Origin: Nitrospirota bacterium | GTDB taxonomy: Bacteria > Nitrospirota > UBA9217 | Direction: 5' to 3' | NCBI GenBank assembly: GCA_963740085.1 | Contig: CAVUCU010000001.1 | Span: 1,152,001 to 1,216,000 of the forward strand | Length of the DNA: 64,000 nucleotides | Shown here: one piece after another, positions 14,067-27,886 of the stretch | How the letters are laid out: the number at the start of each line of letters is the position of its first letter | Position numbering within the stretch: the first letter of the stretch is position 1 | Notes under the pieces: generated by a model | What the model saw: only the letters and a program-made list of their open reading frames with translations | What the model was told of the DNA's origin: nothing | Databases searched by the model: none | Made by a program: the position numbers and the translations under genes

Positions 14067-14202
14067 AAAAGAAAAAAATGAACTGAATATCTACAAATTA
14101 AAATAAAAATGCATTGACGCTTTCAGGCTCTTCTATGTGCCTTCCATGCTTTCTGTGGCAAAAGATTCTTGCCATTGTGAGTAACCTTTGACCTATTAGC
14201 TT

Positions 14203-16452
14203 CTAAAAATACGCCCTCAGGTTCGTGCTGAATATTTTTGAAGCCGATCTGCCTTCGTCCGACTTGCTCAGGGTATCCTGATACGCGGCGGCCAGGTAGG
14301 TGGTCCGGGTGATCTTCCACGTCAGGGACGGACCCCAGGTCCTGACCCTTGAGTTCTTTTCGGACTCCCAGCTCTCGGTATACGCAAAGGAGAACTCGAG
14401 AGACCCGCCGAAGAACGGCGACCAGTTGAACGCATAATTCTGCGACCTCTTGGTCGTAGTCCTGGGTGGCTACGGTGCTCATACCGGCGACGAGGTAGAG
14501 CGTATCGACGGGATGATAGGTGGCCGTCTCATCGGTCCTGTCGGTCCACGTTATAGATTCCTGCGTGCCCCCTCCTGAACTGTGCGTCCTCGACGAATCA
14601 TAATTGAAGCTCAGGTTCAGCGTACGGTGGGGCTGAATACTCGCTCCGGCGATGAGGTCCGTGCTGTCCACGCGTTCGCCCGTGTCCTGGTCCTTAAAGG
14701 TCATCCCTCCCGAGGCCGTCAGGACCACGCCTTGATAGACATCCGCGTGATTATGCAGGAAGACGCTGTTCGTATTGGAACGTCCGCTGGTGGTCTCCTC
14801 AAACCTCCCGCTGTAGGACAGATTGTGGCGGAGCGTCTTGAGGGGGACCGCGTCGAGGGACGCGTCCGCGACATACGCAAAGCCGTGGTCCGTGGGTTCG
14901 GAAAAATCCTCCCTGCCGGCGCGCGCGTTTTCGGAAAAGACCCTGCTGAGACGATGGGACGTTGTCAGCATGTTTGAAAGGGTCCAGCGCTGCTGCCCGG
15001 AAGGCTCCTGCTTGGAGAGAAAATATGAGAGATTGTAATACAGGTTCGCGCTTTCCAGAAGCAGCGCCTTGCCGTCGAAATTATAGGTCTGGGTCGAAGT
15101 GGTCTTCTTCCCCCTTGCCTGCTCCGCTGATGTGCTCGAAATGGCCTGGATCTCCGTCACGAAGATATCGGGATATCCTGAGGCGCCCTGCACCGCCGGC
15201 GAGAGGGGTTTCACCACGACCTTTATATATCTCGTGTTGACCGATGAAAAGGTGATCTCGAAACGGTTTTCGAATTGCCCGAACGGGGCAGAGGACAGGG
15301 TTGTGTACAGGCTCCAGTTCAGGTTGTCGGAGCTCGTATAGACGTCCCAGGAGAAGGAGCCGGCGATAACCGACGGAAGCTCCCTGTCCACCCAAACCCG
15401 GAGCGTGTTCACATCCTGGGCAAGAGAAAAATCGAGGCCGATGTTCCGTTCCCGCGTGTCTCCTCCGATGATGGACGGCATCCCGATGTTGACCCCGGCG
15501 CTTGTTGTAAGGTTTCCGTCCACCAGCGCGGAATTCGATGCAAGGGCGCCGTCAACAGGCGTATCATCGATGGACGAAAGCCCGGCAAAAGGGCACCAGG
15601 CCGATGTCCAGCGTCCCCGTTCCGCTGACCGAGGTGGTCAATTCATTGTAGCTGACGTTGTAGCTCGTATCGAACGAGACGCCGGTTATGGAAAAAACTG
15701 TTGGCATACTCCGCCCTCCCGACGTGGCTCAGGCTCCGGGTCTCGAGGCCGGACAGCCGGTCGGTGGTAACGATGTAGGTCGGCCTGTACTGCATCGAAA
15801 TAGTGTCGGTCGGCGTATAATTCATGGTAAGACCTGCGTAGTCACGGACGACGTCCTGGGTGGCATGATCGATGTCATAGACATGCGATCGTTCGACCCG
15901 CCCCTCGATGGAGGGAAGGTCCCGTACCGGGGGATACAGGCCCATGATGCCTGAATAGAGCTCGTTGATATTGGTAATTGCCGGCGACCCGGTGGACGAC
16001 GACGTCTCCTCCCGCCGGCTGTATCTGGCTCCGGCTGTGTAGACCGGGGACCTCAGCGTCAGGTCCACCAGCGGCTGGACCCTCGTCAGCGTCGAATCCG
16101 TCCAGACGCCGTCGGTGATCGTTGTGCTGTCTGTTTTGTCAAAAAGGCCGCTCGCATACAGCCTGAGATACGGGTAGAGGGTCTTCGACAACGACAGGTT
16201 GTAGCGCTGGGTGTACGAGTCGGTCTTCGTGTGGCTTGAATTGCCCTGGACGTCCTGGGAATCGGAGGCCAGATTGCTGTATCCGAGGTCCACGTAACCG
16301 CCGATCCCTTCCGCGGCCGCGCTGCAGGGAAAGAGCGAGGCCGAAAGGAACAGAAGCGTTGGAAAGACCACGGCCGCTGCCGCACAACTCCGGAGGACGG
16401 ACCGCCACTGCTGAACGGATCCAGCTGGTCTTGATTTGCGAACAGGATCCAC
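14203..16452 (-). CDS. Outer-membrane beta-barrel protein with an internal F5/8-type-C (discoidin)-like domain; frameshifted
   Basis: Joins ORFs 15643..16452 and 14123..15523, with a further shift near 14455. Signal peptide and alternating amphipathic strands. The corrected C-terminus ...KIFSTNLRAYF* (TAG at 14203) ends in the beta-barrel Phe. Internal segment WDVYTSSDNLNW...TRYIKVVV. Confidence 0.75.
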
Positions 16453-16459
16453 CGGGCTT

Positions 16460-17860
16460 TTACCTCTCCCCCATCATGGCCACCCACTGCGCGTCCACGC
16501 CGATGTCAAGCTCCATGACCGTCTGGTTGCCGATGAGATTGACGCTCTGGAGCGAGTTTTTCCGCGGCACCACCAGGTACAGCTCGTTTTCCTCACCGTC
16601 TATCGCCATGCCGGCTACGCCCTCTCCCGCCGGGATCCGGTCGATCGGCATGTCCAGGCCCGGCTGGTACACCGAAACCAGGGGATCGAACCGCCTGCCG
16701 ACATAGATGCGGTCTGTCCTGGTGTCGACCTTCAAGGCTCTCGCTCCCGTGCCGACGGAGATCCGCTGAACGACGGCGAGCGACGAGGTGTCGATGACCG
16801 AAAGGTATGAGGAGAGCGAATGAATGACATAGAGCCTGTCCCCGTTGCGGTTCAATTGCCCCCGCAGCGGGCCCGCGTCAACGGAGATCGTCGCGGTAAC
16901 CTGTCTCGCAGCGAGGTCGATGATGGAAATGGAATCCGACTGGGTATTGAAGACATAGGCCTTTTTGCCGGACGAATCGACGAGGACCGTGTTCGGTCCG
17001 TTGCCTACATTGATCCGCTCCAGTTCGATGAAGGAAACAGGGTCGATGATGCTCACCGTGTTCGAACCGTTGTTCGCCGTCATCAGGATGCGGCCGTCCG
17101 GCGTGAGCGCCGGCTCCTGGGGACGGTCGCCGGCATTGAGCACTATCCTGTGGATGATCTCGTTGCTGGATACGTCTATGATGTCCACGGAGTCCTCGCC
17201 GGAGAGCGCCACATAGGCCCGTTGCCGAGCCTGGTCGAGGACGATGCCCCGCGGGTCCGCCCCCGTGGCTATGACATCCACAACCCTGCCTGCCTTCTTA
17301 TTGAAGACGGTTATGTCGTTCGAACCCTGATTCACCACATATCCCATAAGGGCCGTGATCGGTTTTTTGGGCCGGTCGAGGGAAAAAGAGGGGCTGAAGC
17401 CGAACCGGTCCCGTATTGCCTCCTTGGGACGCAGTGTTCCTTCCAGGACAGAGGCCCTGCCTTTGCGCACCTCAAAGGAGAACGGCTCCAGCAGCGGCTC
17501 TTCTGGCACGAGCAGGGCGTTTTCCCCTGCTTCTCCCCGGAGAAAGGCCTCATGGGTGCGGAATGCAAGGCCTTTGTACAGACCGGGAGGAACTCTGCCG
17601 GAGGCAACGAGGCGTTGTCTGTTTATCGTACTGACGCTGAATTCGGTTATCGCGAGCGTGAGGGGAAATTCCGTGCCGTCGTCCCGACGCGCGACGATCT
17701 CGCTGAGGTCGAACCTGAGCCGTTCCGCCTCTCCGGGAAGGGGCTCGACATAGAGGAATATCTCCCCTTCCTCTTCAAGGGGCGGCTTCAGGCGGGCGGT
17801 GGTTGCAAAGCAGCCGGAAAGAAATACAACCGTGATGAGAAGAAAATATAAACGTCTCAT
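16460..17860 (-). CDS. YVTN/YncE-family beta-propeller lipoprotein
   Basis: Lipobox LSGC, with YVVNQGSNDITVF, ANNGSNTVSIID and YVFNTQSDSISIID blades. Confidence 0.88.
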   Translation of the reverse strand: MRRLYFLLITVVFLSGCFATTARLKPPLEEEGEIFLYVEPLPGEAERLRFDLSEIVARRDDGTEFPLTLAITEFSVSTINRQRLVASGRVPPGLYKGLAFRTHEAFLRGEAGENALLVPEEPLLEPFSFEVRKGRASVLEGTLRPKEAIRDRFGFSPSFSLDRPKKPITALMGYVVNQGSNDITVFNKKAGRVVDVIATGADPRGIVLDQARQRAYVALSGEDSVDIIDVSSNEIIHRIVLNAGDRPQEPALTPDGRILMTANNGSNTVSIIDPVSFIELERINVGNGPNTVLVDSSGKKAYVFNTQSDSISIIDLAARQVTATISVDAGPLRGQLNRNGDRLYVIHSLSSYLSVIDTSSLAVVQRISVGTGARALKVDTRTDRIYVGRRFDPLVSVYQPGLDMPIDRIPAGEGVAGMAIDGEENELYLVVPRKNSLQSVNLIGNQTVMELDIGVDAQWVAMMGER

Positions 17861-18184: not shown

Positions 18185-18800
18185 TGTTCTTTGCGGTTAA
18201 TTGGTTCGGTCCTGAAAGTCACATAATTCTATAACTACTTAAATTGACCGCATAGAACACAAAGATCACAAGGATTTTAACGAATGAAAACATAATGGTT
18301 TCATATCTCTCCTGTTTCCCCTTCTCTGCGTTCTTTGCGTTCTTTGCGGTAAATTGGTTCAGGTCCTGGAAAGTCACATAATTCTATAACTACTCAAATT
18401 GACCGCAAAGAACACAAAGATCACAAGGATTTTAAGAATGAAAACATAATGGTTTCATATCTCTCCTGTTTCCCCTTCTCTGCGTTCTCTGCGTTCTTTG
18501 TGGTTAATTGGTTCGGTCCTGAAAGTCACATAATTCTATAACTACTTAAATTGACCGCAAAGAGCACAAAGATCAACAAGGATTTTAAGAATGAAAACAT
18601 AATGGGTTCATATCTCTCTGGTTCCCGTCCTCTGCGTTCTCTGCGTTCTCTGTGGTAAATTGGTTCGGTCCTGAAAGTCACATAATTCTATAATACTCAA
18701 ATTGACCGTCAGTAGAACACAAAGATCACAAGGATTTAAAATAAATATTTTTATCCTCTGTGTTCCCTCTGTGGTTTACTCTGCGTTCTCTGCGGTTAAT
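18185..18800. repeat. Tandem array of four palindromic units of about 153 nt
   Basis: TTGGTTCGGTCCTGAAAGTCACATAATTCTATAA recurs at about 18201, 18354, 18507 and 18661. Each unit has arms ACCGCAAAGAACACAAAGA and TCTGCGTTCTTTGCGGT. Confidence 0.85.
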
Positions 18801-18817
18801 TGGTTCTAGCGGCAGCG

Positions 18818-20106
18818 CTATGGATATACCCCTACATGGCATTTGTTGCAAAGTGTATCCTGCGAGGGAGCAAATTTCGTCGCCGGCATGTCATAATACG
18901 CCCGCAAGGCCTCTGCCTCCGTGCGCCCCTGCCCGTAGGGCTGTTCAGGCTGCCCTTCCTGGGAATACGATCCATTGTTCTCGATAAAGCTTGTTTCAGC
19001 ATTCCATCTCATGATGCCGTCCCACCCCGACGCGTGCGCCCGGTGGCAGGTAAGGCACGTCACCTGCGCCGTTGTGTCGGGACCAGTGAGCCAGGAATCA
19101 TCGCTTTTTGCATGCGCCTTGAGGGTCGCGTAGTCCGTGATTCCCTCCTCGAAGGGAACGAGCGAAAGATAGGACGTATTCACCAATCCCGTGAGATCGC
19201 CGCTTTTAATATATGCATTATAGTTGGCCGCCTTGATTGCGCCGAGGTTGGCGGCGTTGCCTGTCGGGTGAAGCAGGTTCGTCTTCCCGGGCCAGGTTGT
19301 CGTATGCATGTCCGGGTGGCAGTTCCTGCACCACTCCGACATGCCTGCACCGTAGGCCACGCGGGTCTGCGTTGTTGCTTCCGACCTGTTGTATGTGTCC
19401 GGCGCGACGGCGGCGGGAGGATCGTTCACAAAGGCAAAACCGCCGGTCAAGGATTTCGGCAGATAGCCCTTTCCGCCCAGCATCCGGTACACACCCACCG
19501 CCTTGTTGGCTTCAGGATCGGGACTGGACGCGTAGGAGCCCGAGCCGATAATGGGGCTCCAGGTCGTGGATATGGATCCGTCGAAATTCCTCCGGTATTT
19601 TCCATGGGGGTCGTGACAGCTTATGCAGGACAAGCCATCCGAGGGATAGGTCCCGCCCGGGGCAGCGGAATAGGTGCTGTCGCTATCGTACAGGAAGTCG
19701 GCTGCCACGATATTGTGTCCATGCCTTTCTCCAAGGCTGGATATGGGCGGCAGCCCGGGACCCGGGACCCAGGAGAAGGTCTTTTTGAGCCATCCGAAAT
19801 CTCCGCCCGGCGTGAGCTGTTTGGGAGGCATGCCCTGCGGGAGCTCGCTGAACGGCGTGCTTACATGGTAGTCCGTCGGACCGATGTCGCCCGGCTGCTG
19901 ATGGCAATACAGGCAGGTTGAACTGGCATCCTGTTCCCGCAGGAGAGAAGGCCCGCTGATCGAGAGAATGTCGGTACCGTGTATCGAGTGACAAGCAACG
20001 CACGTACCGACGCCGCCGTCGTGGAAAGCCGCTGAACCGCTTTCCAGCCGATGATAATAAGGGCTGTTGTCAACAGACCCCTGATGATGGTCGTCAGTAT
20101 TTTCAT
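18818..20106 (-). CDS. OmcS-family hexaheme cytochrome (GSU2501-like paralogue); frameshifted near the 5' end
   Basis: The reconstruction reads MKILTT...FHDGGVGTCVACH...SSTCLYCH and continues into ORF 18818..19831 (TPGGDFGWLKKT, CISCH, CRNCH, CLTCHRAHASG, LCNKCH), giving six CxxCH motifs. Confidence 0.88.
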
Positions 20107-20211
20107 CTCATCACAGCGTAAATGCGGCATTCCAGGTGAATGCCGATACATCTGAATCCAGGGACATTACTCAGTTAAAAATCAAATTCGACTCAACATG
20201 AAAAAAAATTT

Positions 20212-20340
20212 ACCGCGAAGACGCCAAGAACGCAAAGAAATCTCTAACTCCTGGTATTTAACCGAAGAATCTTTAGCATTCCTTCGCGACCTTCGCGCCT
20301 TGGCGGTTCCAAGGTTTTGGTTCCGGGCTGTCCGGGTCAG
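20212..20340. repeat. REP-like palindromic element with flanking GGTTCCGGGCTGTCCGGGT motif
   Basis: Arms ACCGCGAAGACGCCAAG and CTTCGCGCCTTGGCGGT. The flanking motif matches 13868-13892 in reverse orientation. Confidence 0.6.
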
Positions 20341-20428
20341 ATAGACTTATAATTACATGAAGACAGACGAAATTGCAATAAAATAAATGGCAGAATGGAC
20401 CCGCTTATGCTCATCATAACAGCTTAGG

Positions 20429-20462
20429 AAAAAGAAGGGCTGGATTTCTCCAGCCCTTCTTA
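20429..20462 (-). terminator. Rho-independent terminator after an omcS paralogue
   Basis: AAGAAGGGCTGGA-TTTC-TCCAGCCCTTCTT hairpin with a U-run on the minus strand. Confidence 0.8.
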
Positions 20463-20494
20463 GGTACATACATTATGCTGCGACTAGGTGGATA

Positions 20495-21731
20495 TTAGTC
20501 TTTTGCGTGGCACTTGTTGCAAAGCGAACGCTGGTAGCTGGCATACTTTGTTTCGGGCTGGTTGTTGTAAGCAGCCGATGTTTCTGCCGTGGTGCGGCCC
20601 ATTGCATATTTTGCAGCTGTTGGCGATCGTGCTCGTTGAATCGGTGCCCGGCCATACGCCGTCAGCAGCGATGAACTCGCCTTCGTTCTGCCACCTGGTC
20701 ATGTGCGCGAAGCCGGTTGCATGCGCCCTGTGGCACGAAAGGCACATAACTCTGGATGACGTTGCAGCCTGTGCATTGACGGTGTTGGCTGCTGTCTGGA
20801 GGGCTGCCATGTCGGACGTATTGTCTGTCTGGAAAGGAACGATCGTGTCGAAGCCGGAAGCGCCCGTCAGACCGCTGCCCAGATAGGCGTTGTAGTTTGC
20901 TGCAACTGCTGCGCTGAAGCCCTGGTTTACCGGGTGGGTCAGCTTGGTGCTGGTGGCGCTGTGCATGTCAGGATGGCAGGTTGCGCACCAGTCGGAGATG
21001 CCGGCGCCATAGGCCTCGGCCGTCTGCGAGACTGCCTCTGTCCTGTTGTAGGTGGATGCAACGAAGCGTTGGAATGTCGCGGTGAAGGTCTTGCCGCCTG
21101 AACCGGCCGTGGAGCCCGGTCCACGAAGGAGACGGAACACGCCGACTGCCTGGCCTGCTGCCGGGAGCGTGCTGTTGGTGTAGGAGCCGGAGCCGATGAT
21201 CGGGGCGCCCGTGGTTGCCATGGCGCCAGTGGAAAGCCTTCTCAGTTTGCCATGGTTGTCATGGCAGCTGTTGCAGGAAAGCTGGGTTGCATCCATGTCG
21301 CCGCCCGGGGCGGTCGTGTTCTGCGCATCAGCAACGTAACCGGGGAGGGCGACTGCTACGACGTTGTGGCCATGTCTCTCGCCAAGTTCTGTTGAAGAGG
21401 AGCCGGACCGAGGGGACCAGGTATAGGTCTTGAGGAGCCAGCCGAAGTCGCCGCCCGGGGTCATCTGAAGCGGGGGTACGCCGGCGGTAACTGTCGGGGT
21501 GAGGATATGATAGCTGCCTGCTGATGGTGAGCCGTGGCAGGAAGCGTTCGCGCAGGTGGAGGTGATGTCCCCGGCGATAAGGAGAGCTGAGGCGCTCTGA
21601 CCGTCATGGATGTCGTGGCAGCCCATGCACTCTGCAACGCCGCCGGAATGGAACGCATAGCTTGCGGTGCTGAGGCCGATTATTACGGCAAAAGCAGCTA
21701 CAAGGATAAGACTAAATTTAACGATTTTCAT
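20495..21731 (-). CDS. omcS: OmcS/OmcT-family nanowire hexaheme cytochrome; one frameshift near 20615
   Basis: Start MKIVKFS (ATG 21731, GGAGG RBS), mature N-terminus FHSGGVAECMGCH, PLQMTPGGDFGW. The corrected C-terminus is YQRSLCNKCHAKD* (TAA 20495). It follows the NHL gene, as omcS does in Geobacter. Confidence 0.9.
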
Positions 21732-21750
21732 TACATCCTCCTGAATTTTG

Positions 21751-21829
21751 CTCCGGCAGACCAGCCATCCCGCTTCCGGGATCTGTGACTTTGTGCCCCC
21801 ATCTTGCAATGGGTTTACTCTTTTCGGAG
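21751..21829 (-). ncRNA. GEMM-I cyclic-dinucleotide riboswitch, A20 variant (GEMM-Ib; predicted ligand 3',3'-cGAMP)
   Basis: CUCCG-AAAAG-A-GUAAACCCAUU-GCAA-GAUGGG-GGCACAAAG...AUCCCG-GAAG-CGGGAU-GGCUGGUCUGC-CGGAG gives P1, GNRA-capped P2 and P3. Position 20 is A (nt 21819). Confidence 0.85.
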
Positions 21830-21859
21830 GATCGATTGTGCCGGCAATGCCGACATATT

Positions 21860-21914
21860 TTACTTCTCACTTTTTACTTCTTACTTCTTACTTTTTACTT
21901 CTTACTTCTTACTT
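21860..21914. repeat. Heptamer microsatellite (TTACTTC/T), about 8 copies
   Basis: ttacttc tcacttt ttacttc ttacttc ttacttt ttacttc ttacttc ttact. Confidence 0.85.
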
Positions 21915-21977
21915 ACTGTCTGCTTTTTAACGACCTCGGTAGTTCATCACCTCCTTTATTTATCGTCCAGCTTGTTT

Positions 21978-22937
21978 TCAGTTGTAACTGATCCTGAAAA
22001 CGCTGACCCCTTGATTTTTTGCCTGGTTCACGAAGATCTTGTCGTTCATGACTTCCACTTGCTGCGGGGCGAAAAGGCTGCCCCGGTCTGTGCCGCGGTG
22101 TCCGAACTGCATCTGGAAATTGAAGTCCTTGTCATAGACCATGATCACGCTTTTGAGAATATCGGCCACGTAGATAAATCCCTTGTCATCCGATGCAATT
22201 CCTCCCACGACATTGAACTTTCCATCGAGGCTGCCCGGGGTGCCGAAGGATGCCACCTTGTGGTCGAGGGACATTCTGAAGGCCGCGAACAGCGTAGGCA
22301 CCGTGAAGAGCATGCTGCCGTCCCGGTCCACGTTGAAGCCGACCATTTCGTTCTTGGAATCGGGCTTGTCTTCCTTGACGAGCAAGGCCCCGACGTCATA
22401 GCCGTCTACGAATGTTCCGCTGGAATCCGTGACCACGATCTTTCTTGCCTGAAAGTCGGCAAGGTAGATGTTCCCGTTCTTGTAGACAAGACGATTCGGC
22501 CGAAGCTGTGAAAACTCCTGAGGAAGCCCCTTGAGTTCCACGGTATCCTTCAGTTCTCCGCGGTAATTACAGCGCAGCACTGAAATGATATTCCCCCTGG
22601 CATCCCATTTGGAGGAGAGCACGAGGATGTTGCCGTCCTTTTCAGCGGCAACATCGATTATGTTGCCGAGTGCCTGGTCGTTGCCGAAGCGGTAGATCTC
22701 CATGCCTACGGAATTGAATATGCTGACAGTGCCCTGGTTGATGACGTATATTTCTCCGCGCTCCTGGTCGCTGGACAGCCCCGGCCAGGTGTAGGGGATC
22801 CTGCCGGTAAAGTCGGAGAAGGTGTAGAGATAGGAAGCGTTTATTGCTGCAGTTGCATTTGTTGAGCAGAAGAGCAACAGCAGGATCGCTGTTACCGTTG
22901 CGAGGGATGTCATATTTTTTAAATGAAGGTCTTTCAT
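21978..22937 (-). CDS. Secreted NHL-repeat six-bladed beta-propeller (GSU2505-like)
   Basis: Signal peptide; GIASDDKGFIYVAD and FGTPGSLDGKF NHL motifs. The start is moved to MKDLH (22937, GAGGA RBS) because the ORF-track start overlaps the sigma-54 promoter. Confidence 0.85.
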   Translation of the reverse strand: MKDLHLKNMTSLATVTAILLLLFCSTNATAAINASYLYTFSDFTGRIPYTWPGLSSDQERGEIYVINQGTVSIFNSVGMEIYRFGNDQALGNIIDVAAEKDGNILVLSSKWDARGNIISVLRCNYRGELKDTVELKGLPQEFSQLRPNRLVYKNGNIYLADFQARKIVVTDSSGTFVDGYDVGALLVKEDKPDSKNEMVGFNVDRDGSMLFTVPTLFAAFRMSLDHKVASFGTPGSLDGKFNVVGGIASDDKGFIYVADILKSVIMVYDKDFNFQMQFGHRGTDRGSLFAPQQVEVMNDKIFVNQAKNQGVSVFRISYN

Positions 22938-22965
22938 TTTTTCCTCTGCATTTGACTGCTTATAG

Positions 22966-22981
22966 TGCAATGGCTATGCCA
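22966..22981 (-). promoter_or_regulatory. sigma-54 promoter for NHL-omcS
   Basis: Minus strand TGGCATAGCCATTGCA (GG-N10-GC). Confidence 0.78.
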
Positions 22982-23057
22982 TGAGATTAACCACATATAA
23001 CATATTGAAAGTGTTATGTTTATCTTTTGGAATGGGAATTTAAACATACGTGTATCT

Positions 23058-23091
23058 GGTCAAATGACCATTCTCCTATAGTCATATTCCC
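23058..23091. promoter_or_regulatory. Candidate enhancer, second copy
   Basis: GGTCAAATGACC-N10-AGTCATATTCCC, with the same spacing as the 4421 palindrome. Confidence 0.55.
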
Positions 23092-23933
23092 ATAAGGACT
23101 GCTTAAAACAGGGTTTCTATCGTTTGGGGCAAAACAGGGGAAATTATTGCGGTAAAGAGGGGGGAATAAGCCGCAAGAGGCCGATCCGGGAACGTGCGGG
23201 GTTGGGTAAAGCTTTTAAAATTGGATCTTCTGACTTTTATGTGGGTCGTTTAACAGCAAGTACCGCTATTTATTCAACATCAATAGTCTGTTTTCTGAAT
23301 ATCATCTCAGTTGGCACTGTCCCACTTGTGCATCGATTTTTTTGGGCAGCTCATCGCTCGGCCGCGCAGCATGCAGGGATATATACTGTACTCAGCCCTG
23401 ATATGCAGGTCTCGCATCACTCCACCCTCACCCTTTGAAAAAGGGTTCGGCCGTGTCTGCCTTGTCTTGTTCTTGCAACTACGATCTGTGCAGCATTGCT
23501 CTGCGCATCTTTCGTTCAGAGCTACCCGGCGCAGGGGAGAGGCAGAATTTTAAAGGCTACCCCACTAAGTGCAGAATTAACCTCAACGGGATTTGGGGAG
23601 ATACTCATATCTTTGCCGTTCCAGAAGCCCCTGCATCCCATGAACAGGTTCGCGCACAAGCCATGGTAAGGTAGAAAAGAACGATGTTGCCACAAAGCCA
23701 GGCAGACGCACCGTGCTCTTGCGATAACGCGGGTGCAGGCGGCCAATCTAAGGGAAGCGCTGCGATGCTCGAAAAAGCTCGTTATCAGTACCGGCAATCA
23801 TGCCCTGCGCGGAGCTGTGAACTGGGGTGCAGAAAAAAAATAGGATCGTGATATGTGCCGAGTTAAGAACAGATAAAAACGACCCACACAAAACCCGGAA
23901 GACCCTTAAAATTTTGCTATCCCTGGAAGAAGC

Positions 23934-23967
23934 AAAAAAAAGGAGGACCGGCGAATGCCGGCCCTCC
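23934..23967 (-). terminator. Rho-independent terminator after an omcS paralogue
   Basis: GGAGGGCCGGC-ATTC-GCCGGTCCTCC followed by a T-run on the minus strand. Confidence 0.8.
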
Positions 23968-23990
23968 CGAGAATGCAGCTTCAAAATATA

Positions 23991-25271
23991 TTAATCCTTC
24001 GCGTGGCACTTATTGCAAAGCGACCTCTGATAAGAGGCGTAATGCATTGTCGTGCCGTTGTAGGCCGCGGTCGTCTCTGCAACGGTGCGGCCCATCGCGT
24101 ACTTAGCTGCGTTGGCGATCGTGCTTGGGGAGTCAGTGCCCGGCCATACGCCGTCAGCAGCGATGAACTCTCCATCATTGTTCCATCTGGTCATGTGCGC
24201 CCAGCCAGAGGCGTGCGCCCGGTGGCAGGAAAGGCACATGACCCTGTCGACCGTGCCGGCCGGACCGTTGCGATTCGAGCCGTCACTGTTTGCAAGGGCC
24301 TTGAGGGCGGTGATGCTTCTCAAGTTGTCCGTCTGGAAGGGGACGATGGAATCGTACGAGTTGGCCGCTGTCACTCCCGTTGTAAGTCCGCTGCCCAGAT
24401 AGGAGTTGTAGGTGGCGACCTCGGCGGCGCTCAGGCCCTGGTTCACCGGGTGCGTCATCTTCGTGCTGCTGGCCGTATGCATGTCTGGATGGCAGGTTGC
24501 GCACCATTCCGATATGCCGTATCCGTAGGCCACGCGGGTGGGAGCAGCTGTTGTCTCCGCCCTGTTGTAGGTGTCCGGGGCGATTGCGTTAAAAACCACG
24601 GTAAAGGTCTTGCCGCCTGATCCGGCTGTAGAACCCGGACCGCGAAGCAGGCGATAGGAGCCGACTGCCTGGCCCGCTACCGGGTCAGTGCTTGACTTGT
24701 AGGAACCGGAAGCGATGATCGGCGCTCCTTTTACTCCCCAGGTCGGGTTCGTTATTAACCCGATTCTTCTCAGCTTGCCGTGGTTGTCATGGCAGCTGTT
24801 GCACCCAAGGAGAGATGCATTCATGTCTCCGCCAGGAGCAGTCGAGTTCTGTCCATCTGCAACGAAACCGGGAAGGTCCATTGCCACGATGTTGTGGCCA
24901 TGTCTCTCGCCCAGTTCTGTCGAAGAGGAACCCGACCGCGGAGACCACGTATAGGTCTTCAAGAGCCAGCCGAAGTCACCGCCCGGGGTCATCTGAAGCG
25001 GGGGTACGCCTGCGGTGACTGTCGGGGTGAGAATGTGATAGCTTCCTGCCGACGGATTGCCGTGGCAGGATGCGTTGGCGCAGGTGGAGCTTATGTCGCC
25101 GGCGATCAGGAGCGCTGAGGGGCTTTGGCCGTCGTGAATGTTGTGGCAGCCCATGCACTCCGCTACACCGCCGGAATGGAACGCGTAGCTCGTAGCACTG
25201 AGCCCAACGATAAGCAGGGCTGCAGCCAGGGCAACGAGACTACCTTTGACTATTTTATTGACCATCTTCAT
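23991..25271 (-). CDS. omcS: OmcS-family nanowire hexaheme cytochrome (intact)
   Basis: Signal peptide, then FHSGGVAECMGCH...PLQMTPGGDFGW...CLSCHRAHASG...YQRSLCNKCHAKD, the OmcS terminal signatures. Five CxxCH motifs plus CANASCH. Confidence 0.93.
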   Translation of the reverse strand: MKMVNKIVKGSLVALAAALLIVGLSATSYAFHSGGVAECMGCHNIHDGQSPSALLIAGDISSTCANASCHGNPSAGSYHILTPTVTAGVPPLQMTPGGDFGWLLKTYTWSPRSGSSSTELGERHGHNIVAMDLPGFVADGQNSTAPGGDMNASLLGCNSCHDNHGKLRRIGLITNPTWGVKGAPIIASGSYKSSTDPVAGQAVGSYRLLRGPGSTAGSGGKTFTVVFNAIAPDTYNRAETTAAPTRVAYGYGISEWCATCHPDMHTASSTKMTHPVNQGLSAAEVATYNSYLGSGLTTGVTAANSYDSIVPFQTDNLRSITALKALANSDGSNRNGPAGTVDRVMCLSCHRAHASGWAHMTRWNNDGEFIAADGVWPGTDSPSTIANAAKYAMGRTVAETTAAYNGTTMHYASYQRSLCNKCHAKD

Positions 25272-25292
25272 GTACTCCTCTGGGTGATACAG

Positions 25293-25372
25293 CTCCGGTA
25301 GCCCGGCAATCCTGAGTCTCAGGACCCGATAGCTTTGTGCCCCTGCCTTGCGACAGGTTTACCCTTTCAGAG
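25293..25372 (-). ncRNA. GEMM-I riboswitch, G20 variant (predicted ligand c-di-GMP)
   Basis: CUCUG-AAAG-G-GUAAACCUGUC-GCAA-GGCAGG-GGCACAAAGCUAUCGGGUCCUGA-GAC-UCAGGAUUGCCGGGCUAC-CGGAG. Position 20 is G (nt 25363). Confidence 0.87.
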
Positions 25373-25522
25373 GAACGTTTGCGTTAGCAATGCGGGCGGA
25401 TATGCATGCAACGAATCCGGACGCGGCATAGCGACTTCGATTTATTTTCGATTTATTGTCGAGGGAAAAACTAAAGGAATTAATAGTGGGTCCGAGCGAA
25501 ATAGCAGACAGTAAGTAGTAAT

Positions 25523-25551
25523 ACCTTAGCAATAGTCTGCATGGATGTCAA
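25523..25551 (-). promoter_or_regulatory. sigma-70 promoter for the stand-alone omcS paralogue
   Basis: TTGACA-N17-TAAGGT with an extended -10 TG on the minus strand. Confidence 0.55.
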
Positions 25552-25655
25552 GTAAAATATCAAATAACCATTAAAAAAAGTTTATTGGTGCCATTACAAC
25601 ATAACTATATAATATAATGGAGTTTTATTCCCTACCGCATGCGTGGAATATTTAG

Positions 25656-25684
25656 TTGACGTTTAAAAAAAACCATGTTACTGT
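25656..25684 (+). promoter_or_regulatory. Divergent sigma-70 promoter for the first TMTC-like gene
   Basis: TTGACG-N17-TACTGT with an extended -10 TG. Confidence 0.45.
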
Positions 25685-25844
25685 TCGACTGTCTAAATAA
25701 ATTTTAACTATCAGGTTGAAGGTTGTAAGACTGAAGGTTGAAGCATGTTTTTTACCTTCAGTCTCACCTGAAGCCTAGCACCTTCAGTCTATCCTACTTG
25801 TTACTTCATCCTGACGAGTTTATATCACCTGTCAGTTGCCAAAT

Positions 25845-27886
25845 ATGATGATGAAGACGAACGATTCCAATGCCAACCTCAAGATCTCCCTATTGCTCAT
25901 CGTCTCGACCCTGCTTGTCTTCGCTAAGGTCGGCGGGATGGAGTTCCTCTCCTACGACGATAATCTGTACGTCACCGACAATCAGACAGTCTTGGGGGGG
26001 CTGTCATGGAGCAATGCGGCATGGGCCTTCACTACCATGCACGCGGCCAACTGGCACCCGCTCACCTGGTTGTCGCTCATGCTCGACATCCAGCTCTTTG
26101 GTCCCCGCCCCGGCGCCCTGCACCTGATCAATGTCCTGTTTCATGCCGTCAACGCGGTCCTGCTCTTTCTGATATTGGCGCGCATGACGGGCGCTCGGTG
26201 GCGCAGCGCCTTTGTCGCCGCCCTCTTCGCCATTCATCCCCTGCACGTGGAATCGGTGGCATGGGTGGCCGAGCGCAAGGACGTTCTGAGCGTCTTGTTC
26301 GGTCTGTTGACCATCTGGGCCTATGTACGCTATGCAGCTCGTACCGCACTGTTCATCATACGCATGGGTGGTCCTCTTCTTTGTCCTCAGCCTGCTGAGC
26401 AAACCGATGCTGGTAACCATGCCATTCCTGCTTCTGCTTCTGGACTACTGGCCGCTCGGCCGCATGGGCGGCCTCCATCAACCTGTTCCTGGAACGGTTC
26501 CGGACCCACCGCAGACATCATTGACCCGGTTGATCATGGAGAAGGTCCCGCTTCTTGTCCTCTGCGCCGCATCGAGCGTCGGTGACCGTGGTGGCGCAGA
26601 AGCACGGCGACGCAATGGCCGATCTTCTTTCACTCAGTCTGGGAGTTCGTCTGGCCAATGCCGCGGTCGGCTACGCGCGGTATCTCGGAAAGACCTTCTG
26701 GCCCGCATCGTTCTCGGTTTTTTATCCACATCCCGGAGCTGCCTTGCCGGTATGGCAGTCAGTTGGGTGCCTTTCTTCCTTCTCATCCTGATCACTGTCC
26801 TTGTCCTGCTGCGACTCAGGCAATCTCCCTGGCTTGCAGTCGGCTGGTTCTGGTTCATAGGGACGCTGGTTCCCGTTATCGGACTGGTGCAGGTGGGAGC
26901 GCAGTCGATAGCGGACCGGTACACCTATTTTCCTCTGATCGGGATATTCATAATGATCGCCTGGGAGGCGCCCGGACCTGCTCAAGGGTCTGCGCATCGG
27001 TCCGCGGGCGCTTGGGGCAGCGTCAATGCTGGTGATCGTTGTACTCTCGGGACTCACGTGGAGACAGCTCGGTTTCTGGGAGAGCGATGAAACGCTGTTC
27101 CGCCATGCGAACAGCGTGACGAAGGACAACTGTGTTGCCCAGGCAAGCCTCGCCGAGGCCCTTCTCCGGAAGGGCGACCTCGAAGAGGCATACGGCTTAT
27201 TCCAGAAAACGCTGCGGCTTTGCCCCAGACGACCAACAGTCTTGGTACAATCTCGGCGTGTTGCAGAAGAACAGGGGCGAGCTGCCCGAGGCGGAATACG
27301 CCCTGCGTGAGGCATTGCGGCTGAAGCCCGGCTATACGTCACGGCCTGGTCCAATCTGGGCGCGGTTTACGTTGCTACGGGTCGCGTCCCCGAGGCGATA
27401 GACGCCCTTCTCGAAGCGGCCCGGCTTGCGCCCGGCGACGCTTCGATCAAGTTCAACCTCGGTTCCGTCTATGAAAAGTCAGGACGATTCGCCGAGGCGA
27501 TCGAGGCCTATCGAGAGGCAGTACGGCTCAAACCGGACTATGCGGCTGCCTGGAACAATCTCGGTATTGCGTATAAGAACTCGGGGCGGATCCCGGAGGC
27601 GGCCACCGCATTCCGGCAAGCGGCTCAGATCCGGTCCAACGATCCCGTTGCCTGGTACAACCTCGGCATCCTCTATTCCAAGTCAGGGGATTTCGCCGGG
27701 GCTGTTGAGGCCTTTCGCGAGGCAACGCGCCTCGGGCCGGACCACGCCGAGTCATGGCACCAGCTCGGACTCGCTTACTTGTCTTTGGGGAGAAGGCAGG
27801 AAGCTCTCGAGGTAATGCAGACATTGCAATCGCTCGATGCTGGAATGGCCGAGGACCTGCGGCGCCGGATAGGTCGTGGGCGGTGA
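25845..27886 (+). CDS. TMTC-like GT-C glycosyltransferase with C-terminal TPRs; several frameshifts
   Basis: YDDNLYV, NWHPLTWLS, HPLHVESVAWVAERKDVL, LLSKPMLVT and ADRYTYFP motifs are spread over consecutive frames, followed by TPRs (AWNNLG, AWYNLG) up to TGA at 27886. Confidence 0.85.

Follow-up and report, generated by a model that had tools for sequence, protein, structure and literature searches.

Two paralogous genes for OmcS-family multihaem cytochromes, here called omcS-A and omcS-B, lie in a stretch of 64,000 nucleotides (the window, whole and at full length) of contig CAVUCU010000001.1 from a bacterium labelled Nitrospirota (assembly GCA_963740085.1). We propose that the two hexahaem proteins are encoded in separate transcription units and that each gene is gated at translation initiation by a GEMM-I riboswitch. 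The switch of copy A would respond to cyclic di-guanosine monophosphate (c-di-GMP), while that of copy B would prefer cyclic guanosine monophosphate–adenosine monophosphate (cGAMP). The probability of this reading is estimated at about 0.5; the identity of the aptamers and of the genes is held with very high confidence. Coordinates are window positions, and all features of the omcS units lie on the minus strand unless noted otherwise.

An Infernal scan of the whole 64-kb window with the Rfam models returned two GEMM-I matches, both on the minus strand, and no match to any other family at gathering score. The aptamer of copy A (25293..25372) scores 60.4 bits with RF01051 and 60.2 bits with RF03167, that of copy B (21752..21829) 56.3 bits with RF01051; the gathering scores of the two models are 35 and 59, respectively. 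RF01051 matches span model positions 1-87 in both copies. In the Infernal alignments, the ligand-reading base is the unpaired base directly 5' of the P1a pair (G-U/A-C). This base, at position 20, is a G in copy A (25363) and an A in copy B (21819), so that the adenine at the position of G20 of the Vc2 aptamer, a feature of GEMM-Ib, is found in copy B and not in copy A. An A at position 47, the C92 region and a GNRA tetraloop on P1a are present in both aptamers, as are the CAC-AAAG element, GCAA loops and the sequences CUGCCGG / CUACCGG. The initial annotation had placed two homologous GEMM-I aptamers ahead of two omcS paralogues, had fixed the register by G21-C46 and U22-A45 and had read the specificity base as A at 21819 and G at 25363; the Rfam matches, the homology to OmcS and the model alignments agree with it on all these points.

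RF03167 (c-di-GMP-I-GGC) is the best-scoring clan member for copy A, at 60.2 bits against its gathering score of 59. Assignment to this variant was nevertheless rejected: RF01051 scores equally well, and copy A has an A where the model has a G after the 3' strand of P1a, which makes it an ordinary G20/A47 aptamer. The GGC in the model name presumably refers to the pocket bases, including a G that replaces A47. The genome holds six GEMM-I aptamers. The sole other one with A20, at positions 19714-19790 of contig C7 (minus strand), has a terminator and precedes the gene of a predicted lipoprotein of 498 residues (C7:18096-19592).

The GEMM-I fold is backed by covariation among 13 related aptamers, in which 93.8% of the cells are paired compared to 35-49% when the partners are slid. 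Both sides change in six pairs of this alignment, the helices P1a and P1b are supported, and none of 500 shuffles reached the observed covariation score. Aptamers A and B differ from each other by compensatory stem changes, and the P1a hairpin of copy A carries two double changes relative to the other aptamers. Because of these double changes and the covariation, both aptamers look functional and maintained by selection.

The protein encoded by omcS-A (23991..25271, 426 residues) is homologous over its full length to OmcS, the structures of which are PDB 6EF8 and 6NEF (residues 31-426 against 1-407 of 6EF8, E 2.2e-86). It contains six haem motifs, five CXXCH and one CX4CH (CANASCH). In the OmcS filament, His16 ligates a haem of the next subunit; its equivalent FHSGGVAECMGCHNIH is present in copy A, and all 11 aligned homologues share the residue (H46). 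Copy B (20495..21731) shares 72-75% identity with copy A at the protein level (282/389 residues, 72%). It is in frame from 21731 to 20619, where an extra base (20618) shifts the frame, and the +1 frame then holds its last 40 codons, with CNKCH as the sixth haem motif, up to a stop at 20497..20495. A third OmcS-family gene, copy C (18818..20107), is 50% identical to A, encodes six CXXCH motifs and has an apparent frameshift between signal peptide and mature part; the Rfam scan found no aptamer upstream of it. Of the 64 genomes in the window's family, 26 encode OmcS homologues. Among named OmcS loci, the nearest belong to metagenome-assembled genomes labelled Nitrospirota/Nitrospirae or Ca. Deferrimicrobiaceae; judged by these relationships, the host of the twin omcS loci is not a Geobacter.

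Control at the level of translation is suggested by the leaders. Each aptamer ends 10-20 nt before the Shine-Dalgarno (SD) sequence, and no terminator was found after either of them. In copy A, the 5' strand of P1 with its extension, GUUCCUCUG (25368..25376), forms an anti-SD of nine contiguous bases complementary to the SD region. The latter, CAGAGGAG (25275..25282), lies 3 nt before the ATG at 25271, and the pairing partner of GUUCCUCUG reads CAGAGGAGU. In copy B, seven contiguous bases, AUCCUCC (21826..21832), overlap the P1 5' strand and are complementary to the SD GGAGGAU (21735..21741) ahead of the ATG at 21731. Minimum free energy (MFE) structures of both copies pair the P1 5' strand with the SD, and the probability that the SD is unpaired in the ligand-free ensemble is 0.044 for copy A and 0.002 for copy B. 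The SD/anti-SD helix is retained in the fold of the whole 266-nt leader of copy B (z -3.17), and none of 200 shuffles folded as well.

The same arrangement was found in relatives. Of 13 family leaders, 10 have MFE structures in which the SD is paired with the P1 5' strand, and so do 26 of 36 rows. Complementarity runs over at least seven contiguous bases in 26 of the 34 distinct leaders (with a median of 8 and a maximum of 12), compared to a mean of 2.5 and a maximum of 7 of the 34 in 200 control sets with shuffled 5' segments. Which side the helix extends on varies among leaders. In copy A, a change of the P1 strand from CUCCG to CUCUG is answered by CAGAGGA on the SD side. Taken together, the predicted folds make it probable that both switches act on translation and turn it on upon ligand binding.

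The two paralogues are separate transcription units. An intrinsic terminator of a 12-bp stem with 9 G-C pairs (23968..23941) followed by T7 closes the unit of copy A (23934..23968), and a 13-bp stem of -23.9 kcal/mol followed by T5 closes that of copy B (20429..20461). Read-through from A into the unit downstream, or from B into C, was rejected on account of these strong terminators (23968..23941 and 20461..20429). The unit of copy B starts with a sigma-54 promoter-like site, TGGCATAGCCATTGCA (22966..22981), which has one mismatch to the pattern TGGCAC-N5-TTGCW (GG and GC 12 nt apart) and lies 1152 nt upstream of the A20 aptamer. Four sites with at most one mismatch were found on both strands of the 64 kb among the 200 matches listed. 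Between site and aptamer lies an NHL-repeat (beta-propeller) gene (21978..22937; open reading frame with a PF01436 match, E 4.2e-05), the first gene of a conserved module. The conserved C-terminus of the NHL protein is also readable upstream of relatives' aptamers, and of 33 aptamer rows, 23, mostly with G20, have a sigma-54-like site at a corresponding distance upstream: 1090-1322 nt in 17 of them, 982 nt in one and 191-222 nt in five, these last five without an NHL gene in between. Based on these comparisons, sigma-54 promoter, NHL gene, leader, aptamer and omcS evidently make up an old, ancestral module that mostly carries G20 and is conserved across phyla. The unit of copy A has only the aptamer and the SD switch of it.

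These results modify two earlier claims about promoters. The A20 gene had been described as lying downstream of a sigma-54 promoter; the site at 22981..22966 exists and is conserved in relatives, but sigma-54 is not tied to A20, since most rows with the conserved site carry G20. The G20 gene had been credited with a sigma-70 promoter and a terminator of its own. The terminator was found as described above, whereas the promoter did not hold up: a scan of 18500-26000 gave 7 promoter-like sites, compared to 5.5 expected from shuffles, and none convincing upstream of the copy A aptamer. A weak candidate that the scan does not list, at 25523..25551, consists of TTGACA (25551..25546), a 17-nt spacer and TAAGGT, which matches the -10 consensus at 3 of 6 positions.

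Rfam identified 15 aptamers in 28 family loci, and a covariance model built from 13 aptamers contributed 24 from 78 named loci and another 12 from 25 additional sources. Once duplicates of the same sequence had been merged and two partial rows removed, 34 distinct SD-type aptamers before OmcS genes were left; 22 of them have G at position 20, 11 have A and one has C. In a maximum-likelihood tree of 33 OmcS proteins, A, B and the related loci L033/L066 form one clade (99/98), within which B joins the G20-bearing L033/L066 (95/97). Every outgroup whose gene is immediately preceded by an aptamer (L032, L061, L063 and L064) has G20; L062 and L067 of the same outgroup clade have no aptamer assigned to that gene. 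Since the nearest relatives and the outgroups carry G, A20 arose on the branch of copy B, and copy A retains the ancestral G20. A split of OmcS paralogues between A20 and G20 is not unique to the window, because genome G021 splits too: two of its OmcS paralogues stand behind A20 aptamers of the SD type and a third behind two tandem G20 aptamers. The tandem aptamers (L140, G021:C10:510000-511950, positions 202-292 and 408-498) each have a terminator that overlaps the 3' strand of P1b. Rare states of position 20 were also seen (L148 / L097 and L113), namely C before an OmcS gene in one family genome and U in Geomobilimonas luticola.

The following mechanism would accommodate these findings. In the free RNA, the P1 5' strand would pair with the SD located 10-20 nt downstream of the aptamer and hide it; ligand binding would stabilise P1, withdraw the anti-SD, free the SD and switch translation on. 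Copy A would be an older, diverged duplicate in which the aptamer and the SD switch survive while sigma-54 promoter, NHL gene and leader are gone, leaving an independent cassette that ends in a terminator of its own. The aptamer of copy A would retain the ancestral G20, the state for c-di-GMP, and would answer to c-di-GMP alone. Copy B would need both a sigma-54 activator and a dinucleotide because it is placed in the module of promoter, NHL gene, leader and aptamer. Its A20 corresponds to the state that favours 3',3'-cGAMP in GEMM-Ib of Geobacter and would still allow binding of c-di-GMP, so that copy B would answer preferentially to cGAMP, made by one of two Ser-type GGDEF proteins present throughout the family. 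We infer the ligand of each aptamer, the activity of these enzymes and the formation of filaments. By analogy with characterised aptamers, copy A is very likely a c-di-GMP switch, and copy B may prefer cGAMP or read both ligands. For a real two-ligand split between the paralogues, we see an even chance.

The analogy is with Vc2, in which G20 pairs with a guanine of c-di-GMP and the wild type rejects cGAMP, and with aptamers in which an A at position 20 pairs with the adenine of cGAMP, both as described in PMC6140456. Several points weigh against the proposed reading, beginning with this base. According to the same paper, A20 aptamers such as Gs1761, Vc2 G20A and Cbe 1-2 bind c-di-GMP through an adenine that is protonated, and bispecificity is described for several natural ones. 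For the omcST riboswitch of G. sulfurreducens, sensitivity to both ligands is cited, and it responded least in gacA and esnD mutants (PMC6456294). Furthermore, position 20 flips between close orthologues (A in L041 and G in L042; A in copy B of the window and G in L033/L032), which could reflect weak constraint. The choice of ligand rests on one nucleotide, for which no matching source reads were found. The ON direction is drawn entirely from thermodynamic folds, and 8 of the 34 leaders have fewer than 7 nt of complementarity; one of the eight (L036) is an artefact, its row having ended at an earlier ATG.

The alternative best served by these points is that both switches read c-di-GMP, that A20 in copy B is tolerated, nearly neutral or tunes affinity, and that the paralogues differ only in their promoters. 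The variability of position 20 among the 34 aptamers and the dual binding of A20 aptamers would be expected under it. What stands against it is the distribution of A20: in one OmcS clade elsewhere in the family that spans real divergence, 4 of 5 rows have kept it, and it occurs in both paralogues of genomes G005, G007 and G021, a pattern that looks selected rather than drifting. We regard this alternative as possible, if rather unlikely.

The supply of cGAMP bears on the same question. The initial annotation had proposed to look for a GacA-like Hypr GGDEF synthase in the genome. In the window's own genome, estimated to be 98.5% complete, no canonical GacA (Rec domain, Ser and GGDEF) was found, and a CD-NTase/DncV-type synthase was rejected for lack of a PF18144 match; both results favour switches that read c-di-GMP only. 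Among the 24 GGDEF-domain matches of the genome, two have Ser at the position of Asp348 and are possible cGAMP sources by their sequence motifs. The lack of a cGAMP synthase, named in the initial annotation as refuting its reading, is thus not what the genome shows, the two proteins being candidates. Their strong conservation across the family argues against the c-di-GMP-only alternative.

The first candidate is a HAMP-GGDDF protein of 460 residues (L029:661-2043, identical to G000:C4:646152-647531, plus strand) with 4HB_MCP and HAMP domains, the motif NDRYGYANGS with the Hypr-type Ser, and GGDDF. It has the features given for the GSU1937 type in PMC8835794, namely Ser at the 348 position, GGDDF, a membrane/HAMP architecture and neither EAL nor HD-GYP; the likeness is to the published description. 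The protein is present in 59 of 64 family genomes, and Ser is retained in 28 of 30 loci. GGDDF or GGDDY is readable in 26 of the 30; the pattern stopped early in two and gave no match in two.

The second candidate is a GAF-GGDEF protein of 382 residues (L021:1429-2577, identical to G000:C1:729518-730663, minus strand), whose best PDB match is GacA (6D9M, E 7.3e-31). It combines Tyr at the Arg304 position with Ser at the Asp348 position (NYR and GHLEGS, 44 residues apart). It occurs in 62 of 64 family genomes, with Ser and GGEEF in 30 of 30 loci and the Tyr confirmed by a strict pattern in 23 of 30. The central Asp of GGDE[F/Y] needed by the Goldilocks model is replaced, the motif being GGEEF both in the own genome and at every one of 30 family loci. 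Pfam gives only GAF and GGDEF for this protein and no Rec domain; the next gene upstream is only about 250 nt away.

Further points against a cGAMP-responsive copy B concern these candidates. With Ser and GGEEF combined, GacA D374E and WspR mutants were inactive, and Hallberg 2019 (PMC6456294) reports that natural enzymes lack this combination. GSU1937 was only weakly active, in one artificial fusion, and contributed to cGAMP reporter activity in G. sulfurreducens (PMC8835794, the latter in section 2.3). Both Ser-type proteins also occur in genomes with a G20 omcS aptamer, so that their presence does not discriminate; co-occurrence with A20 aptamers was set aside as uninformative, both genes being near-universal in the family. 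The switchable two-nanowire system originally suggested therefore survives in part. Two OmcS paralogues in separate units with different bases at position 20 were found; a clean two-signal split is not established, because position 20 flips, A20 also binds c-di-GMP and omcST is cited as dual-ligand.

The frameshift in copy B likewise counts against two working subunits: the sixth haem motif is cut off. According to a further explanation, copy B is a pseudogene and only copy A (G20), perhaps with copy C, is working, in which case there would be no two-nanowire system. Read in frame, omcS-B ends in 44 unrelated residues and retains five haem motifs, the last CXXCH being lost, and a contig of run X3, 96% alike and covering 20618, was not reported to lack the base. 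On the other hand, the 40 codons past the break are open, nearly identical to copy A and end in CNKCHAKD, as would be expected of an assembly error or of a change that happened very recently. Precisely base 20618 is missing from a relative's contig in run X2 (23.1 of 23.1 depth), and neighbouring genes have similar single-base breaks. The assembly looks indel-rich, with breaks in omcS-B (20618) and omcS-C (near 20045), and the frameshift of omcS-B may therefore be an error. We consider loss of copy B improbable.

Such errors might also have created the contrast at position 20, the true base being the same in both aptamers. The frame breaks in omcS-B, omcS-C and the gene at 25836-27090 show that the assembly is error-prone. 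None of the sequencing runs screened for the source DNA contained at least half of the sampled words (best 0.15). The four metagenome runs compared hold only short contigs of relatives, 90-99% alike. However, the visible errors are indels and not substitutions, and A20 is common in the aptamer lineage (11/34). Relatives' contigs over the copy B aptamer differ at 21773, 21802 and 21808 and not at 21819 among the matches listed (40 rows; 504 further), which is weak evidence. We regard a miscalled base as very improbable.

Among the closest known systems is the omcS-omcT (osc) operon of G. sulfurreducens, which likewise has a GEMM-I aptamer over OmcS-family genes (Kellenberger 2015 and Nelson 2015, as cited in PMC6456294). 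Its cluster of omcS, omcT and oscC (PMC13194489) resembles A, B and C in bringing together several OmcS-like paralogues, and both link cyclic-dinucleotide control to extracellular electron transfer. The window differs in having two paralogues with separate aptamers that diverge at position 20, and in its Nitrospirota-labelled host. The omcS-like loci of Geobacteraceae that were examined (L110 and L102) have A20 and, after the aptamer and about 180 nt ahead of the gene, a strong terminator, indicating transcriptional control; in the window, the SD adjoins the aptamer and the anti-SD is formed by the P1 strand.

Copy B has the same fold as the GEMM-Ib 3',3'-cGAMP riboswitch Gs1761 (pgcA, PDB 4YAZ), and its adenine at the Vc2-G20 position corresponds to A14 of Gs1761 (PMC6140456 and PMC5888326). 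Its expression platform is different, and at position 20 it is only one substitution away from G20 orthologues. With Vc2 of Vibrio cholerae, the prototype of RF01051, copy A shares G20, A47 and the C92 region, and both window aptamers share the GNRA tetraloop on P1a; the genes controlled are different, and the competition between anti-SD and P1 is explicit in the window. The two candidate enzymes resemble GacA (GSU1658, Gmet_1914) in Ser at the Asp348 position and, in one of them, Tyr at Arg304, and the 460-residue protein resembles GSU1937 in its HAMP domain and GGDDF motif. The GacA-like protein differs from GacA in having GAF only, no Rec, and in reading GGEEF.

The leader of copy B contains further conserved elements. 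An almost perfect SD-like element, AAGGAGGUGAU (21946..21956), also written AAGGAGGUGA(U), lies 10-40 nt past the NHL stop codon and about 100 nt ahead of the aptamer; it is not in the copy A leader, and no conserved open reading frame follows it. A similar motif stands at the same place in the leader of window B and in 10 of 11 relatives' leaders listed; it was seen in L032, L033, L034, L038, L041, L058, L063, L064 and L067 and is weaker in L036, which has only AGCGAGGUGA. It could be an mRNA-stabilising or ribosome stand-by element. Pairing of this element with the anti-SD was considered and not seen in the MFE fold or the centroid of the 266-nt leader. Closer to the aptamer are a purine-rich run of GUAAGAA 7-mers (21857..21916), also present in L032 and partly in L033, and, directly before P1, a small GC hairpin, GUCGGCAUUGCCGGC (21840..21854), at a place where relatives conserve a hairpin.

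Between the two omcS units lies a non-coding dispersed repeat of about 600-700 nt (23216..23911). BLAST against the own genome gave 45 further high-scoring segment pairs on contigs C1 and C4, 69-97% identical. Many copies are missing some 62 nt from their interior; the repeat has high depth in all four metagenome runs compared and no Rfam match. A second, shorter repeat of about 150 nt at 20170-20355, between omcS-B and omcS-C, has many weak copies on five contigs. Upstream of copy A, an ArnT/TPR-like gene (25836-27090, plus strand) is split across two frames. Downstream of the three OmcS genes, the region 14123-17860 (minus strand) encodes a YncE-like beta-propeller lipoprotein, a protein with a weak outer-membrane beta-barrel match and a galactose-binding-like protein; the gene at 14123-15523 (minus strand) has an odd C-terminus. 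Possibly these downstream genes form a companion cluster similar to osc.

Geobacter already provides precedents both for GEMM-I riboswitches that control OmcS and for the G20/A20 rule of specificity. If confirmed, the combination of OmcS, dinucleotide switch, sigma-54 promoter and NHL gene with a translational platform, found under several phylum labels, would be a regulatory marker for nanowire loci in metagenomes. Paralogues that differ at the specificity base would represent a natural experiment in which a structural gene was moved between second messengers by one substitution, and the two conserved Ser-type GGDEF proteins would be candidates for cGAMP synthesis outside the known hosts and a direct test of the Goldilocks model. 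No description of these three points was found in full-text searches of the literature on OmcS, riboswitches and nanowires; the supplements of the two founding PNAS papers and Ren 2015 may list related aptamers.

In its widest form, the proposal states that an ancient, cross-phylum two-input module of sigma-54 and translational GEMM-I control governs OmcS nanowires outside Geobacter, with the ligand-reading base toggling between G and A within short evolutionary distances, and that duplication led to one subunit under c-di-GMP (A) and one under 3',3'-cGAMP (B), the latter supplied by non-canonical Ser-type GGDEF proteins, one of them a natural Ser/GGEEF enzyme. Taken as a whole, this is unlikely to hold in every part. 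If true, the Ser/GGEEF enzyme would break the published Goldilocks rule, and Hypr-type cGAMP signalling would extend to a lineage labelled Nitrospirota.

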